From positions 1 through 21,640 of the IMG/VR virus record IMGVR_UViG_2671180903_000016: 21,640 bases of DNA. One strand, 5' to 3'. The first letter of the stretch is position 1, and each line of letters opens with the position of its first letter. The notes below the pieces were generated by a model, which saw only the letters and a program-made list of their open reading frames with translations, ran no database searches and was not told the DNA's origin. Origin of the DNA: a virus (lineage: Duplodnaviria; Heunggongvirae; Uroviricota; Caudoviricetes). This document shows, piece by piece, positions 2,140 through 18,000 of the stretch. A program made the position numbers and the translations under genes.

Positions 2140-2726
2140 TTCACCTCCTGCGGCGGTTCTGGTAGCTGCATCCAGTGGGTTACCTCTTTGAGATACAGGT
2201 CTTCGCCATCACCGTCATCCCAAGTGGGCTTGCCATCATTAAACCAGTCGCCATATACGCCGACCTGAGTGTTGGGGATGTTTGGTGGGTAGTTGTTTTT
2301 AAAGTCAGCTGCTAACACATAGCATTGTCGCTCTCCCATTTCAGGCATTCGCTCACTACAGCTTATCCAACCATCCGGAGTTGCCGGATAGTTGCCATTC
2401 ACAAGGTCAGCTCGAACATATAGCGTGTCATCATGGTGTTGATTGTGGCTGCACCACGTTAATTCGCTTAACTCGCCATCTTCTGGCCATACTCCAGCCG
2501 TTTGCAGCCAGATATGGGCTGGCGCATCTTGGCAAGGTGTATTAACTGGCAACTTGTAAGTTTGGCTTCCAGGTTCTGCACTATCAGCCTTGCGGCGCTC
2601 CTGTAGCTCGCGCAGAGCCGCTACAACATAATGGCTATTGTGCTGGTCAGCCCACAGAATGAGCCGAATCAACGTTGCATTTGAAACGTATTCGTCTGTT
2701 AGTTTGCTATTGGTAAAAGTGGTCAT
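2136..2726 (-). CDS. DUF551-like phage protein (196 aa)
   Basis: C-terminal region (GWISCSERMPE...) resembles the DUF551 domain common in lambdoid prophages, from memory; AAGGTG RBS. Confidence 0.6.
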   Translation of the reverse strand: MTTFTNSKLTDEYVSNATLIRLILWADQHNSHYVVAALRELQERRKADSAEPGSQTYKLPVNTPCQDAPAHIWLQTAGVWPEDGELSELTWCSHNQHHDDTLYVRADLVNGNYPATPDGWISCSERMPEMGERQCYVLAADFKNNYPPNIPNTQVGVYGDWFNDGKPTWDDGDGEDLYLKEVTHWMQLPEPPQEVK

Positions 2727-2728
2727 AG

Positions 2729-2920
2729 CTATTTCACCTTAATCTCAACATTTCGCAGCTTTAGCTCTACTGGCAGGTCTGACTTTCCTGTTAATGCTAA
2801 TGCGAGATTTTCTGGAGTAATGAGAGCAGTTATTGTTTTCCCCATCGCCAGACGAATAATCATTCGTATTTCGCGATCGTCACATGCTCCTGGTCGAACA
2901 ATTGATATTTGTCCGTTCAT
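2729..2920 (-). CDS. Hypothetical phage protein (63 aa)
   Basis: ORF with AAAGGAGAG RBS, 1 nt after the stop of the upstream gene. Confidence 0.5.
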   Translation of the reverse strand: MNGQISIVRPGACDDREIRMIIRLAMGKTITALITPENLALALTGKSDLPVELKLRNVEIKVK

Positions 2921-2921
2921 C

Positions 2922-3521
2922 TCACTCTCCTTTGATGCGAATGCCAGCGACGCGTAATGCGTGTTCTAGGTCAATCAGGTAAAGCCAACTGCCATTTTCT
3001 TTAGGTATCATGACTTGTCGCTCATCTGCATTTATCGGGTGTCCATATCGAAGGTCGTAGCGAGTCGGTAATTGAACTTCCCGCGCTTCCAGTTCAGCAA
3101 TACGCTTGCACCCATCAGAGATAACTCCCTCGTAATACTCGCGCTGCTCGTTGAGTTTTGATTTTGCTGCTTCAAGCTCAACGAGCAGCTTTCCAACCGT
3201 AAGCGCAATATCCTCGTTCTCCTGGTCGCGGCGTTTGATGTATTGCTGGTTTCTTTCCTGTTCATCCAGCAGTGCCAGCACGGTAGCCGGGTTAGCCTCT
3301 GCTATGAATTCAGCGTTTGCATAAGCCTGAGCATCTGATTCAATCAGGCAGTTAACATGACATTCCGCAATCACGCCACCGGGTTCTCCTTTCCATTTTT
3401 GGCAAACAAAAACTCCTGTTAAATTGCCGTGCTGGTTAACAGATGTATGCCCTACGATGTAGCTTCCTTTAGTTGCTTTCTCTGCCTTTTCACGCAGTGC
3501 CTGATAATTAATTTCGCTCAC
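2922..3521 (-). CDS. Ead/Ea22-like protein (199 aa)
   Basis: Position and composition resemble Ea22-family early-left proteins; apparent GTG start overlapping the TraR-like stop (GTGA). Confidence 0.55.
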   Translation of the reverse strand: MSEINYQALREKAEKATKGSYIVGHTSVNQHGNLTGVFVCQKWKGEPGGVIAECHVNCLIESDAQAYANAEFIAEANPATVLALLDEQERNQQYIKRRDQENEDIALTVGKLLVELEAAKSKLNEQREYYEGVISDGCKRIAELEAREVQLPTRYDLRYGHPINADERQVMIPKENGSWLYLIDLEHALRVAGIRIKGE

Positions 3522-6456: not shown

Positions 6457-6589
6457 TCTTTGGGACTCCTGGCTGATTAAGTATGTCGATAAGGCGTTTC
6501 CATCCGTCACGTAATTTACGGGTGATTCGTTCAAGTAAAGATTCGGAAGGGCAGCCAGCAACAGGCCACCCTGCAATGGCATATTGCAT
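6425..6589 (-). CDS. cIII: CIII, FtsH (HflB) inhibitor (54 aa)
   Basis: [54 protein letters not shown] matches lambda CIII; AAGGAG RBS; overlaps the kil start as in lambda. Confidence 0.85.
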   Translation of the reverse strand: MQYAIAGWPVAGCPSESLLERITRKLRDGWKRLIDILNQPGVPKNGSNTYGYPD

Positions 6590-6661
6590 GGTGTGCTCCT
6601 TATTTATACATAACGAAAAACGCCTCGAGTGAAGCGTTATTGGTATGCGGTAAAGCCGCAC

Positions 6662-14913: not shown

Positions 14914-15437
14914 CTATCAAATCAAATACGCCATCACACGACAAGGACTGCTGGCAAACGCCGCTTTGGCTTTTTGATGCACTGGATATTGAGTTTGGAT
15001 TCTGGCTGGATTCGGCAGCGAGCGACAAAAATGCTCTGTGCGCTCACTGGTTAACTGAGGCCGACGACGCGCTAAATTCTGAGTGGATAAGCCACGGTGC
15101 AATCTGGAATAACCCACCGTACAGCAATATCAGGCCGTGGGTGGAAAAAGCCGCTGAGCAGTGCATACAACAGCGACAGACGGTAGTGATGCTTGTGCCA
15201 GAGGATATGTCAGTCGGATGGTTCAGCAAGGCTCTGGAGAGTGTTGACGAAGTTCGCATCATCACTGATGGACGGATTAATTTTATCGAACCATCGACAG
15301 GGCTGGAGAAGAAGGGAAACAGCAAAGGCTCCATGCTGCTGATTTGGCGACCGTTCATCAGTCCTCGACGAATGTTTACTACTGTATCCAAAGCGGCATT
15401 GATGGCGATCGGGCAGGGCGTCAGGAGGGCGGCATGA
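14910..15437 (+). CDS. Phage Dam-like N6-adenine DNA methyltransferase (175 aa)
   Basis: NPPY motif (IWNNPPYS); ATGA overlap with ninB; size typical of phage orphan Dam-family methyltransferases. Confidence 0.8.
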
Positions 15438-15616
15438 GGCGACAGCAAAGAAGCATCACCGACATCATCTGCGAAAACTGCAAATACCTTCCAACGAAAC
15501 GCTCCAGAAATAAACGCAAGCCAATCCCAAAAGAATCTGACGTAAAAACCTTCAACTACACGGCTCATCTGTGGGATATCCGGTGGCTAAGACATCGTGC
15601 GAGGAAAACAAGGTGA
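15434..15616 (+). CDS. ninE: NinE (60 aa)
   Basis: [51 protein letters not shown]... matches lambda NinE as recalled; ATGA overlap with the methyltransferase gene. Confidence 0.85.
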
Positions 15617-15708
15617 TTGACGCGATGATTTATTCGGGGCTATATTCCTCACGCGCCAGCAAAATCTGGCGTCGGGATTAGCACCCCGGATGTTTACGGA
15701 GCGATATG

Positions 15709-15729
15709 AGACGCGCCCGCGTCTTTTTT
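15709..15729 (+). terminator. Terminator-like hairpin after ninE
   Basis: AGACGC-gccc-GCGTCT followed by TTTTTT. Confidence 0.5.
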
Positions 15730-15875
15730 CATATCGTTTGCACAGTCACATTCGCGATTTATGGCGGGCTGTGTGGGGGAGCTGAAAGGCTCGCCGGTTT
15801 CCGTACCCGGTAGTGCTAACCCCGCACAGTTCGCCACCATGATGATTAGCACCTGACGGTGGCGATAATGTCCAA

Positions 15876-16598
15876 ATGTACGGAGTTATCGTTATGGCCA
15901 CTCAGATTTCTGTCGAAACTCTTTCCCCAATTACACACAACCAAATTCCCGTTATCACTACCGAGTTACTGGCACAGCTTTACTGTACCGAGATCAACAA
16001 CATCAAAGTAAATTACACCCGTAATTCCGAGCGTTTTGTTGAGGGTAAACACTTTTTCAAGGTTGTTGGTGATGAGTTGAAAATTTTGCGGGTTACTTTA
16101 AGTAACTCACAAAATTTGCAACCATCTTTAAGAGGGTTACAAATTTCCCCGAAAGCCCGCTCCCTCATCCTCTGGACAGAACGCGGAGCAGCCCGTCACG
16201 CCAAAATGCTCGAAACCGATCAGGCGTGGGAAGTGTTCGAAAAACTGGAAGACTGCTATTTCAGCCAGTGCGAGAAAAATACTGGCAAACAAGAGAAGAA
16301 GCTCAACGGGCTTTCCGCAAAAGAAACAGACAGCCTTGTATGGCTGTGGGATTATGCTAACCGCTCACAGGCATTATTCCGCGAATTGTATCCAGCGCTA
16401 AAGCAAATTCAATCGAACTATTCCGGCAGATGTTACGACTACGGTCATGAGTTCTCGTATGTTATTGGAATGGCGAGAGACGTTTTAATCAATCACACAC
16501 GAGATGTTGATATTAATGAGCCAGACGGACCAACGAATCTTTCCGCATGGGTAAGGCTTAAGAACAAAGAATTACCTCCTTCACTACATCGCTACTGA
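15876..16598 (+). CDS. ORF6N/KilA-N-type domain protein (antirepressor-like), 240 aa (alternative start at 15894)
   Basis: N-terminal segment ([40 protein letters not shown]) fits the ORF6N-domain pattern as recalled; followed by a strong terminator. Confidence 0.6.
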
Positions 16599-16615
16599 CA
16601 ATTGACAACTTAACA

Positions 16616-16639
16616 AACCCAGCTTCGGCTGGGTTTTTT
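16616..16639 (+). terminator. Rho-independent terminator
   Basis: AACCCAGC-ttcg-GCTGGGTT followed by TTTTTTA. Confidence 0.75.
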
Positions 16640-16666
16640 ATTGGTGAATTTTCAATATGAGAGGAC

Positions 16667-17395
16667 ATGACAATGAACGAGCTGATAAATAGCAACGTCA
16701 TCAAAATTACCAGCATTGAAATCTCTGAGCTTACAGGTAAGCGTCATGACAATGTGAAACGTACTATCGAAATGCTGGCTAAAAATGGTGTTATCCGACA
16801 TCCTCAAATTGAGGATTGTGGAAGAATCAATGGGTTAGGCTTAAATCAAAGTTTTCGTGTGTATGTATTCGAAGGCGAACAAGGTAAGCGAGACAGCATT
16901 ATTGTCGTTGCCCAGTTGTCGCCGGAATTCACCGCTCGTCTTGTTGACCGTTGGCGAGAGCTTGAAGACGCTGCGGTTAATATCCCCAAAACTCTACCAG
17001 AAGCGTTGCGCCTTGCTGCTGATCTTGCTGAGCAGAAAATGCAACTGGAAAACCAGCTCGCAATTGCCGCACCTAAAGTTGAGTTTGCCGATCGCGTTGG
17101 CGAGGCCAGCGGAATTTTGATTGGAAACTATGCAAAGGTTGTTGGTATTGGTCCAAACAAACTGTTTGCGTGGATGCGCGAACACAAAATCCTTATTGCT
17201 TCAGGTTCCCGGCGCAATGTGCCAATGCAGGAATATATGGATCGCGGCTATTTCACAGTGAAAGAAACAGCGGTCAATACAAATCACGGAATACAGATAT
17301 CGTTCACCACAAAAATCACCGGGCGTGGTCAACAGTGGCTGACCAGAAAGCTGCTAGATAACGGAATGCTTAAAGTAACAGGGGAGGCTGCTTAA
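16667..17395 (+). CDS. Rha-family regulatory protein with C-terminal KilAC/antirepressor domain (242 aa)
   Basis: N-terminal Rha-like region ([24 protein letters not shown]) and C-terminal Ant-like region as recalled; GAGAGGA RBS. Confidence 0.75.
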
Positions 17396-18000
17396 TGGCT
17401 AAACCAGCGCGAAGGAAATGCAAAATCTGTAAGGAATGGTTTCACCCGGCATTCTCAAATCAGTGGTGGTGCAGCCCGGAACACGGAACTAAATTAGCGC
17501 TCGAACGACGAAATAAAGAACGCGAAAAGGCGGAAAAAACAGCAGAGAAGAAACGACGACGAGAGGAGCAGAAACAGAAAGATAAAATTAAGATTCGAAA
17601 ACTCGCCTTAAAGCCCCGCAGTTACTGGATTAAACAAGCCCAACAAGCCGTAAACGCCTTCATCAGAGAAAGAGACCGCGACTTACCATGTATCTCGTGC
17701 GGAACGCTCACGTCTGCTCAGTGGGATGCCGGACATTACCGGACAACTGCTGCGGCACCTCAACTCCGATTTGATGAACGCAATATTCACAAGCAATGCG
17801 TGGTGTGCAACCAACATAAAAGCGGAAATCTCGTTCCGTATCGCGTCGAACTGATTAACCGCATCGGGCAGGAAGCAGTAGACGAAATCGAATCAAACCA
17901 TAACCGCCATCGCTGGACTATCGAAGAGTGCAAGGCGATCAAGGCAGGGTACCAACAGAAACTCAAAGACCTGCGAAACAGCAGAAGTGAGGCCGCATGA
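17395..18000 (+). CDS. ninG: NinG (Rap) structure-specific endonuclease, 201 aa
   Basis: Near-identical to lambda NinG as recalled ([10 protein letters not shown]...[10 protein letters not shown]...); overlapping start. Confidence 0.9.

Follow-up and report, generated by a model that had tools for sequence, protein, structure and literature searches.

Two genes with antirepressor-like domains lie between ninE and ninG in the window, the 21,640-nucleotide stretch of viral DNA analyzed here. A preliminary description had taken them for two independently regulated insertions, each followed by a terminator. What is this segment (15617–17395), and how is its expression controlled? Its sequence identifies it as the ant–roi module that Stx-type lambdoid phages carry in the nin region. 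This identity is settled because close annotated homologs exist: RefSeq prophages with annotation match the module at 99.7% identity, and the two proteins share 75–80% identity with Ant and Roi of phage Φ24B. The upstream neighbor is ninE (15434–15616; Pfam NinE, 146 bits) and the downstream neighbor ninG (17395–18000; Pfam NinG, 303.9 bits); the cassette occupies, as had been proposed, the place of ninF in lambda. Stx phages such as Φ24B and VT2-Sakai (Sp5) arrange the region likewise, as ninE – RNA module – ant – terminator – roi – ninG. All features described below are on the plus strand. Within this module, we consider it probable that ant is governed by an RNA switch resembling that of the P1 immI region.

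The first open reading frame (ORF) spans 15876–16598. PGAP places the start of ant in a 99.7% identical genome at the ATG at 15894, and comparison of alleles agrees: the N terminus from this ATG is kept, while the sequence upstream diverges. The start given previously at 15876 was therefore revised. The resulting protein (15894–16598, 234 amino acids; PHROG phrog_377) has ORF6N at its N terminus (Pfam, 69.2 bits), as described earlier, and P22_AR_C at its C terminus (PF10548, 95.5 bits). It is 75% identical to Φ24B Ant and, over its N-terminal 133 residues, 65% identical to AnrP of the Gifsy-1 prophage (E = 4e-57). An intrinsic terminator with a 9-bp GC-rich stem, a UUCG loop, and a T-run follows at about 16615–16639 (fold z = -5.2), in a stretch that is 98% identical among the Stx-phage loci compared.

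The second gene, roi, ends at 17395. PGAP favors a start at 16673, which we regard as more likely than the alternative at 16667, where the ORF had been begun. The C-terminal KilAC/ANT domain named in the preliminary description was found (PF03374, 113.7 bits; PHROG phrog_63) and, like ORF6N, belongs to an antirepressor-type family. The Rha assignment is borderline, since the N terminus just passes the Phage_pRha cut-off (PF09669, 30.2 versus 29.9 bits) and the Φ24B homolog, at 27.1 bits, falls below it. Roi shares 80% identity with its Φ24B counterpart and 54% identity with P1 Ant1 over 189 amino acids. A terminator had been assigned to each gene, but only ant has one: none was found 3′ of roi, whose stop codon overlaps the ninG start (TAATG, 17392–17397). 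Upstream of roi, no promoter matching at least 8 of 12 consensus positions was found, and the best site (7 of 12) is not credible. Expression of roi probably depends on antiterminated read-through.

If it acts as a P22-type antirepressor, Ant would bind and inactivate the phage repressor. One or both proteins could instead bind DNA to regulate lytic growth or host functions, which we regard as unlikely but worth weighing. The ORF6N, Rha, and KilAC domains are shuffled among many phage regulators, searches of NCBIfam profiles and PDB sequences returned no match for Ant or Roi, and HK022 Roi, to which the window Roi is linked through Φ24B Roi, affects lytic growth in IHF mutants. The N-terminal 125 residues of Φ24B Roi are shared with HK022 Roi (PMC3430580). 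Moreover, Φ24B Ant leaves superinfection immunity unaffected, and no direct CI binding has been reported for it (PMC3064807). Against this reading, Ant has its P22_AR_C domain in common with P22 Ant, and the KilAC portion of Roi matches P1 Ant1 at 54% identity; P22 Ant and P1 Ant1 are both bona fide antirepressors. Gifsy-1 AnrP, moreover, induces its prophage (PMC4825925). The antirepressor role anticipated earlier also gains indirect support from Φ24B itself, where Ant promotes prophage induction and an ant knockout is induction-defective, with pR′ late expression reduced to ~30% after norfloxacin induction (PMC3064807).

How is ant controlled? The ~260-nucleotide gap upstream had been treated as plain non-coding DNA, but Rfam matched c4-a1b1, isrK, and C4 elements there. 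All three matches exceed their gathering scores, and their order and spacing are as in P1. The gap (15617–15893) thus has the makeup of a P1 immI-like RNA switch: a predicted promoter, an IsrK/c4-a1b1 leader small RNA (sRNA), and a C4 antisense RNA. The related phage and prophage records that we compared carry no annotation of a switch before ant, and several deposited "antirepressor" coding sequences extend through the C4 RNA gene. A study and a review of EHEC sRNAs mention neither antirepressors nor IsrK.

The predicted sigma-70 promoter (TTGACG-18 nt-TATATT, 15617–15646) matches 10 of 12 consensus positions and would start transcription at ~15653. In raw numbers, sites resembling promoters and terminators did not exceed the shuffled expectation in our analysis; the case for these individual sites is built on homology and folding. 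The promoter-like site occupies the position homologous to those of P1c4 (P51b) in P1 and PisrK in Gifsy-1. Its -10 hexamer is as far from the start of the c4-a1b1 model and from the a1 site as that of the annotated P1 promoter, and Gifsy-1 has TTGACA-18-TATATT at the equivalent place. In Gifsy-1, PisrK drives anrP transcription, as determined by experiment (PMC4825925). Of the separate promoters foreseen for the two genes, then, prediction supports the one for ant.

Downstream of the promoter, the IsrK-like leader (15653–15729; Rfam isrK RF01394, 74.4 bits, gathering 50) consists of two hairpins and an intrinsic terminator and overlaps a c4-a1b1 element (15640–15692; RF03163, 49.8 bits, gathering 46.7). 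Folding confirmed both hairpin terminators of the preliminary description, each with a T-run. The first (stem 15708–15725, U-run to 15729) is more than an isolated terminator between ninE and ant, as it forms the 3′ end of the IsrK-like sRNA within a C4 switch that would act on ant translation; some transcripts presumably read through it. The leader carries two candidate decoy sites, a1 (TTAGCAC, 15678–15684) in the loop of hairpin 2 and b1 (TACGGAG, 15695–15701; duplex energy -8.7 kcal/mol), which are complementary to the a′ and b′ sequences of C4, respectively.

The C4-type RNA itself matches Rfam C4 at 15757–15841 (RF01695, 75.7 bits, gathering 45) and folds stably (-45.9 kcal/mol, z = -4.67). 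Homology with the ends of P1 c4 predicts mature ends at ~15763–15838; in P1-type systems, C4 is cut from its precursor by RNase P. The b′ sequence, TTCCGTAC (15799–15806), occupies the loop of C4 hairpin 2 and is complementary to b1 and b2, while a′ (GTGCTAA, 15813–15819) is complementary to a1 and a2. The a2 target (TTAGCAC, 15846–15852) begins 5 nucleotides past the end of the Rfam match. The b2 target, GTACGGAG (15878–15885; -11.2 kcal/mol), includes the ant Shine-Dalgarno sequence, GGAG (15882–15885), which lies 8 nucleotides 5′ of the ATG. The duplex energies of -9.0 and -11.2 kcal/mol are comparable to those of validated P1 sites.

Whole-length RNAduplex runs of C4 against its flanks were uninformative, because everything unfolds in them, and were replaced by loop-restricted searches. 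On the plus strand of the whole window, TTAGCAC is confined to a1 and a2, and its complement is in C4; TACGGAG is found at b1, b2, and a single site unrelated to them. A search of the rest of the window found no extra C4 target pairs.

If these sites pair with C4, they should change together when their sequences change. We compared 17 loci from Stx phages, P1, Gifsy-1, and Salmonella and Aeromonas phages. The sets a′/a1/a2 and b′/b1/b2 covary three ways across these loci, which comprise 8 a-types and 14 b-types, and a per-locus search found a match between C4 and its own sites in every one of them. Across 16 loci, a1:a′ is 99.1% paired, with double changes at five of the seven pairs, and a′:a2 is 97.3% paired, with double changes at four of seven; slid controls gave 25–50% overall and ~37% for a′:a2. 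In a fixed-column alignment, pairing of the b helices reaches only ~55%, owing to variable loop length; it is the per-locus search that supports them. The window shares its a-type with Φ24B and differs from it in b-type. In Φ24B, VT2-Sakai (Sp5), and related Stx phages, the flanks are 96–100% identical to the window, whereas the interval 15650–16150, containing the RNA specificity region and the ORF6N domain, is only ~50–85% identical.

The anatomy closely follows the immI region of P1 and P7 (P1c4 promoter – a1/b1 – c4 – a2/b2 – icd – ant1/2). The promoter, a1, b1, C4, a2, and b2 have the same order and spacing as in P1 or deviate by a few nucleotides. Both systems have b′ in the loop of hairpin 2, a′ after that hairpin, and b2 on a ribosome-binding site. 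The distance from the start of b2 to the start of the regulated gene is 16 nucleotides here (15878 to 15894) and 18 in P1 (453 to 471). Several features differ. The sites themselves are TTAGCAC and GTACGGAG here and TTGACAG and GTTAGTGA in P1. P1 requires icd translation for ant transcription, whereas the window has no icd homolog and b2 covers the Shine-Dalgarno sequence of ant itself; there is no ORF at all in the interval from b2 to ant, and Pfam contains no family for P1 Icd with which to search. The first regulated protein here is of the ORF6N and P22_AR_C type rather than the Ant1 type, and the module is in a lambdoid nin region with no C1-type operator evident. P22 immI offers a further parallel: it too forms a second immunity region and silences an antirepressor, with ant under Arc, Mnt, and sar RNA (PMC3064807). 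Control in the window would be by a C4-type RNA, and neither arc nor mnt is adjacent.

These features suggest how the switch could work. A constitutive promoter at 15617–15646 would initiate transcription at ~15653, and the leader terminator would stop most transcripts, yielding a ~77-nucleotide IsrK-like sRNA with decoy sites a1 and b1. Transcripts that read through would contain the C4-type RNA followed by the ant leader. Acting in cis or in trans, and probably after excision as in P1, C4 would pair through a′ and b′ with a2 and b2. Pairing at b2 would mask the ant Shine-Dalgarno sequence within it, leaving Ant untranslated in the lysogen. A fall in free C4 would release Ant; candidate causes are excess leader sRNA that titrates C4 through a1 and b1 and a burst of PR-driven, N-antiterminated transcription at induction. 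Released Ant would then help to inactivate the prophage repressor and speed lytic entry. The strong terminator at 16615–16639 would close the promoter-driven unit and so keep constitutive transcription out of roi, ninG, ninH, and Q. Roi, with its P1 Ant1-like C-terminal domain and no promoter of its own, would be made only by antiterminated read-through. Flanked by the RNA switch and this second terminator, ant appears to be an autonomous, RNA-repressed unit.

C4 might instead act mainly on transcription, its pairing provoking premature termination, Rho-dependent or intrinsic, before or within ant, like the polarity that follows the icd block in P1. The P4 CI and N15 CB RNAs act similarly. Rfam places both C4 and c4-a1b1 in one clan, CL00128, and in Gifsy-1, IsrK supplied in trans raises expression of a transcriptional fusion 8-fold (PMC4825925). 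The corresponding translational fusion, however, rises 139-fold (PMC4825925), b2 is exactly on the Shine-Dalgarno sequence, and we found no terminator-like hairpin between C4 and ant. We therefore consider a mainly transcriptional role rather improbable, although an effect of C4 on transcription would be compatible with translational repression as a secondary effect.

Another close known system is the isrK–orf45–anrP–isrJ locus of Gifsy-1 (Hershko-Shalev et al. 2016, PMC4825925). Like the window, it has an IsrK sRNA with a terminator, a promoter at the same place (TTGACA/TATATT), a and b sites at the same positions, and a C4-type RNA (Rfam, 69 bits) that is probably the STnc1160 RNA of that study. 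It differs in lying 3′ of Q rather than in the nin region, in its a and b specificities, and in its antirepressor, AnrP, which is without P22_AR_C. An isrJ search of 15560–16700 gave no match at E values up to 1, whereas Gifsy-1 isrJ scores 100 bits. When IsrK is supplied in trans, translation of AnrP rises more than 100-fold and the prophage is induced. The authors of that study attribute the activation to alternative structures in cis and to an upstream ORF rather than to C4 titration (PMC4825925).

Could the same explanation hold for the window? Read-through RNA would fold into an inactive form that IsrK opens in trans, allowing an orf45-like ORF and, by coupling, ant to be translated, with no repression by C4. 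The homology of the loci and the Gifsy-1 genetic data favor this explanation, as does the conserved sequence GGTGGCGA (15858–15865), which can pair with the 3′ strand of C4 and so allow alternative structures. However, orf45 overlaps the anrP start, whereas the window ORF (15761–15856, 31 codons), which begins at a conserved AUG in the 5′ end of C4, cannot couple to ant because it stops 37 nucleotides short of it. Across loci, the length of this leader ORF varies from 14 codons to in-frame fusions, and three-way loop covariation is what an antisense and decoy system predicts. For the window, we judge this explanation very unlikely.

Equally hard to sustain is the initial view of two separate antirepressor insertions, each with its own promoter and terminator and independently regulated: although a promoter-like site and a terminator flank ant and the region is mosaic, with extra genes between ant and roi in other phages, Φ24B, VT2-Sakai, PhiR12_4, and many RefSeq prophages all keep ant followed by roi between ninE and ninG, the two genes together form a standard module, roi has neither a promoter of at least 8 of 12 consensus positions nor a terminator and overlaps ninG, and the gap 5′ of ant is an RNA switch rather than a simple promoter region.

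Returning to repression by C4, we tentatively propose a broader possibility: that leader and C4 constitute an RNA-based second immunity system of lambdoid prophages, with C4 repressing Ant, the leader sRNA acting as a sponge, and the a and b types deciding which co-resident prophages silence each other's antirepressors. Such modules are present in ~46% of complete E. coli genomes, with up to six copies each. If C4 is the repressor and the leader its sponge, the Gifsy-1 IsrK data would be reread as C4 titration.

As a discovery the locus is ordinary, because every component is already known and belongs to a described family; the allelic diversity of the RNA switch is a modest lead. For annotation, the locus illustrates how readily the start of ant is placed too early and that the gap before it contains RNA genes. 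Ant-type proteins speed the induction of Stx-type prophages, and induction releases Shiga toxin. An ant gene behind a C4/IsrK switch with exchangeable specificity would offer a testable handle on RecA-independent induction and on cross-talk among the numerous lambdoid prophages that pathogenic E. coli carries. If the proposed second immunity system exists, shared or mismatched a and b types would shape both the cross-induction and the RecA-independent induction of Stx phages.

Pfam assigns the genes around the two described earlier to Dam, NinE (15434-15616), NinG (17395-18000), NinH and Q. The lambda order is ninE-ninF-ninG, which places the module at the ninF position. An ORF scan returned two plus-strand frames, 15876-16598 and 16667-17395. 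The first encodes ORF6N (residues 18-111) and P22_AR_C (141-212) domains and the second an ANT/KilAC domain (128-230), supporting the ORF6N and KilAC calls of the preliminary description; its Rha call is only borderline (Phage_pRha, 30.2 bits against a cut-off of 29.9). In PHROGs, both proteins fall into anti-repressor families, phrog_377 and phrog_63, respectively. The starts require revision. Gene 1 begins at ATG 15894 rather than at 15876: the N terminus is kept across alleles while the sequence 5′ of this ATG diverges, GGAG lies 8 nt ahead of it, and PGAP uses this start in a genome 99.7% identical. Gene 2 probably begins at 16673 rather than 16667. The two hairpins described earlier, at 15708-15725 and 16615-16636 (folding z = -5.2 for the latter), are indeed terminator-like. 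A terminator had been placed after each gene; one follows gene 1 (16615-16639) and none follows gene 2, whose stop overlaps the ninG start.

The Stx phages Φ24B and VT2-Sakai are annotated with an identical gene order (ninE, gap, ant, roi, ninG); the ORF6N/P22_AR_C gene is named ant there and the Rha/KilAC gene abutting ninG is named roi. PhiR12_4 also has this order, but its antirepressor CDS ahead of Roi carries no gene name. The Φ24B Ant and Roi proteins are 75% and 80% identical to those of the window, and the C-terminal part of the window Roi is 54% identical to P1 Ant1 over 189 aa. The N-terminal 125 residues of Φ24B Roi are common to HK022 Roi (PMC3430580). Knockout of Φ24B ant left superinfection unchanged but lowered late-promoter activity to ~30% after norfloxacin induction, a defect complemented in trans (PMC3064807). 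The 2.1-kb segment has matches in 495 phage records and partial matches in 2510 of 5426 complete E. coli genomes. Full-length matches at ≥99.6% identity occur in three of these genomes, in which PGAP names the products "phage antirepressor Ant" and "phage antirepressor KilAC domain-containing protein".

Elsewhere in the window, the leader of the late region is similar to a Stx-phage leader (19060-19308, 19388-19642, 19790-21640). Three tRNAs lie 3′ of Q, followed by Rfam matches to STnc100 (149.9 bits) and, on the minus strand, the anti-GcvB sRNA AgvB (96.5 bits), and then by a 616-aa ORF (DUF1737, SASA esterase and DUF6645) that stops at the window's last base. As there is no ORF ≥60 aa between AgvB and this ORF, no stx genes are apparent there. 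A match to the lambda cIII thermoregulator element (6544-6602, minus strand; Rfam 88.5 bits) indicates that the window includes a lambda-like cIII region.

The gap ahead of ant is not the plain non-coding spacer it had been taken for. It holds three plus-strand Rfam matches above their gathering scores: c4-a1b1 (15640-15692; 49.8 bits versus 46.7), isrK (15653-15729; 74.4 versus 50) and C4 antisense RNA (15757-15841; 75.7 versus 45). The stretch read earlier as the first terminator corresponds to the hairpin and U-run at the 3′ end of the IsrK model, and the C4 segment adopts its family structure (-45.9 kcal/mol, z = -4.67). These RNA genes are unannotated in the RefSeq record and in the phage records compared (Φ24B and VT2-Sakai), and a study and a review of EHEC sRNAs mention neither antirepressors nor IsrK.

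The two genes had been proposed to be independently regulated. Promoter prediction in both gaps yielded a candidate ahead of ant, TTGACG-18-TATATT (15617-15646, plus strand), directly 3′ of the ninE stop, and none with 8 or more of 12 consensus matches ahead of roi. The number of promoter-like sites in the scan is by itself no higher than chance; this candidate is spaced from the c4-a1b1 element and a1 exactly as the annotated P1 promoter P1c4 (P51b) is. It also matches the TTGACA-18-TATATT ahead of Gifsy-1 isrK, which was shown experimentally to drive transcription of the antirepressor gene 3′ of it (PMC4825925).

In P1, the record annotates a1 (TTGACAG), b1, c4, a2 (TTGACAG, 3 nt after c4) and b2 (GTTAGTGA), which lies on the icd ribosome-binding site; b′ occupies the loop of the second inner hairpin of C4, with a′ immediately 3′. 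The window has the same layout but different site sequences. Its b′ (TTCCGTAC, 15799-15806) is in the loop of C4 hairpin 2 and its a′ (GTGCTAA, 15813-15819) directly 3′ of that hairpin. Upstream lie a1 (TTAGCAC, 15678-15684), at leader position +26 as in P1, and b1 (TACGGAG, 15695-15701). Downstream, a2 (TTAGCAC, 15846-15852) begins 5 nt past the Rfam C4 match, and b2 (GTACGGAG, 15878-15885) includes the ant Shine-Dalgarno (SD) sequence. Predicted duplex energies, -9.0 (a) and -11.2 (b) kcal/mol, are in the range of the P1 sites. Throughout the window, the plus strand has no TTAGCAC apart from a1 and a2, whereas TACGGAG is present at b1 and b2 and once more at an unrelated position.

We compared the window with 16 further isrK and C4 pairs, from Stx phages of several types, PhiR12_4, phiP27, a Salmonella phage, an O157 typing phage, an Aeromonas phage, Ayreon, P1 and Gifsy-1. 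The C4 helices are kept, and variation falls in the hairpin-2 loop and in the segment 3′ of it; in every locus, these variable segments are complementary to that locus's own a1/b1 and a2/b2 positions, giving 8 a-types and 14 b-types. In a 16-sequence alignment, a′ and a2 are 97.3% paired, with both-sided changes at 4 of 7 pairs, and a1 and a′ 99.1%, where 5 of the 7 pairs show such changes. When one partner was shifted by 1-3 columns, pairing fell to 25-50%, and no shuffle reached the observed covariation score. The b helices are ~55% paired in fixed columns because loop length varies; searched locus by locus, each has 6-13 contiguous pairs. In all loci b2 is on or adjoins the SD of the next gene downstream, whose product is of the ORF6N (Stx phages, Gifsy-1), Rha (Aeromonas), Bro-N (typing phage 10) or Icd (P1) type.

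The flanking dam, ninE and ninG genes are 96-100% identical to those of Φ24B, VT2-Sakai and vB_P27, and the terminator region 98%. Identity to these phages drops sharply, to about 50-85%, only at 15650-16150, where the RNA specificity region and the ORF6N domain lie; the pattern resembles an immunity region. Φ24B shares the a-type of the window but not its b-type, and b cross-pairing between the two is predicted at -5.2 and -3.4 kcal/mol, versus -11.2 and -8.9 for cognate pairs.

PP818812.1 ("Actinobacillus phage vB_Apl-pPE4") carries the window RNA module and the 5′ part of ant at 2501-3200 with 96-100% identity. This record, attributed to an Actinobacillus pleuropneumoniae phage, also contains a hok/sok locus and nin genes resembling those of E. 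coli; its stated host seems doubtful, or else the phage is an E. coli-type lambdoid. In four compared phage records, an annotated CDS spans isrK and C4 (L008, 2264-3286; L011, 1638-2780; L010, 1938-2597; L015, 1538-2374). Two of these CDSs are named antirepressor; the labels of the other two are "immunity region" or hypothetical. The AUG within the 5′ end of C4 shares its reading frame with the gene 3′ of it in these alleles, and the CDSs are probably over-extended calls. Phage phi330 has sRNA-Xcc1 (2750-2833; Rfam 73.5 bits) flanked by a truncated anti-repressor gene and by a second Ant gene. An APSE phage paper places sRNA-Xcc1 upstream of an ORF6N gene, and it may be another RNA element tied to ORF6N antirepressor genes.

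Gifsy-1 AnrP is 65% identical to the window Ant over the ORF6N domain. Supplying IsrK in trans raises an anrP translational fusion >100-fold and a transcriptional fusion 8-fold and induces the prophage; a stable RNA complementary to IsrK, STnc1160, is processed from the read-through transcript (PMC4825925). The Rfam C4 match in Gifsy-1 falls exactly at STnc1160. The published account invokes alternative structures in cis together with coupling through a leader ORF, orf45 (PMC4825925). The window counterpart of orf45 (15761-15856, plus strand) begins at a conserved AUG inside the C4 5′ end. It has 31 codons and stops 37 nt ahead of ant, and across the 17 loci its length, from 14 codons to in-frame fusions, and its frame relative to ant vary. 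Coupling therefore cannot be the mechanism in general, and we give it a low probability in the window. Separately, GGTGGCGA (15858-15865, 3′ of a2) is perfectly complementary to the 3′ strand of C4, TCGCCACC (15831-15838), and the pair covaries across loci (GGTGGTGA with TCACCACC). This alternative fold would put a2 in a loop and may be the counterpart of the alternative structures reported for Gifsy-1.

The window module has the RNA-level defining features of both P1 immI and the Gifsy-1 isrK locus; it lacks the icd of the former and the coupled orf45 of the latter. The RNAs and their co-evolving pairing sites are present, b2 overlaps the ant SD, a terminator follows ant, and no promoter is predicted ahead of roi. 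By analogy with these two systems, the promoter at 15617-15646 would be constitutive and most transcripts would end as the leader sRNA. Read-through would produce C4, which would pair with a2 and b2 and block Ant translation, and the leader sRNA, through a1 and b1, could titrate C4. Transcription from this promoter would halt at 16615-16639 and so would not reach Q, while roi would be read only by N-modified polymerase from PR. We consider this scheme as a whole probable, and hold the identity of the module more confidently than the regulatory steps.

The locus is best described as a Stx-phage ant-roi module under C4/IsrK control; what the preliminary description observed is partly confirmed and its interpretation partly supported. 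The module is already known: all its parts belong to described families, and near-identical public sequences are annotated for the proteins. Of 5426 complete E. coli genomes, 2502 carry at least one isrK/C4-like module, the maximum being 6 copies in a genome; the window allele, at ≥95% identity, is present in about 39 records. The sequence evidence allows that the a and b types may act as an RNA-based immunity code among co-resident prophages.
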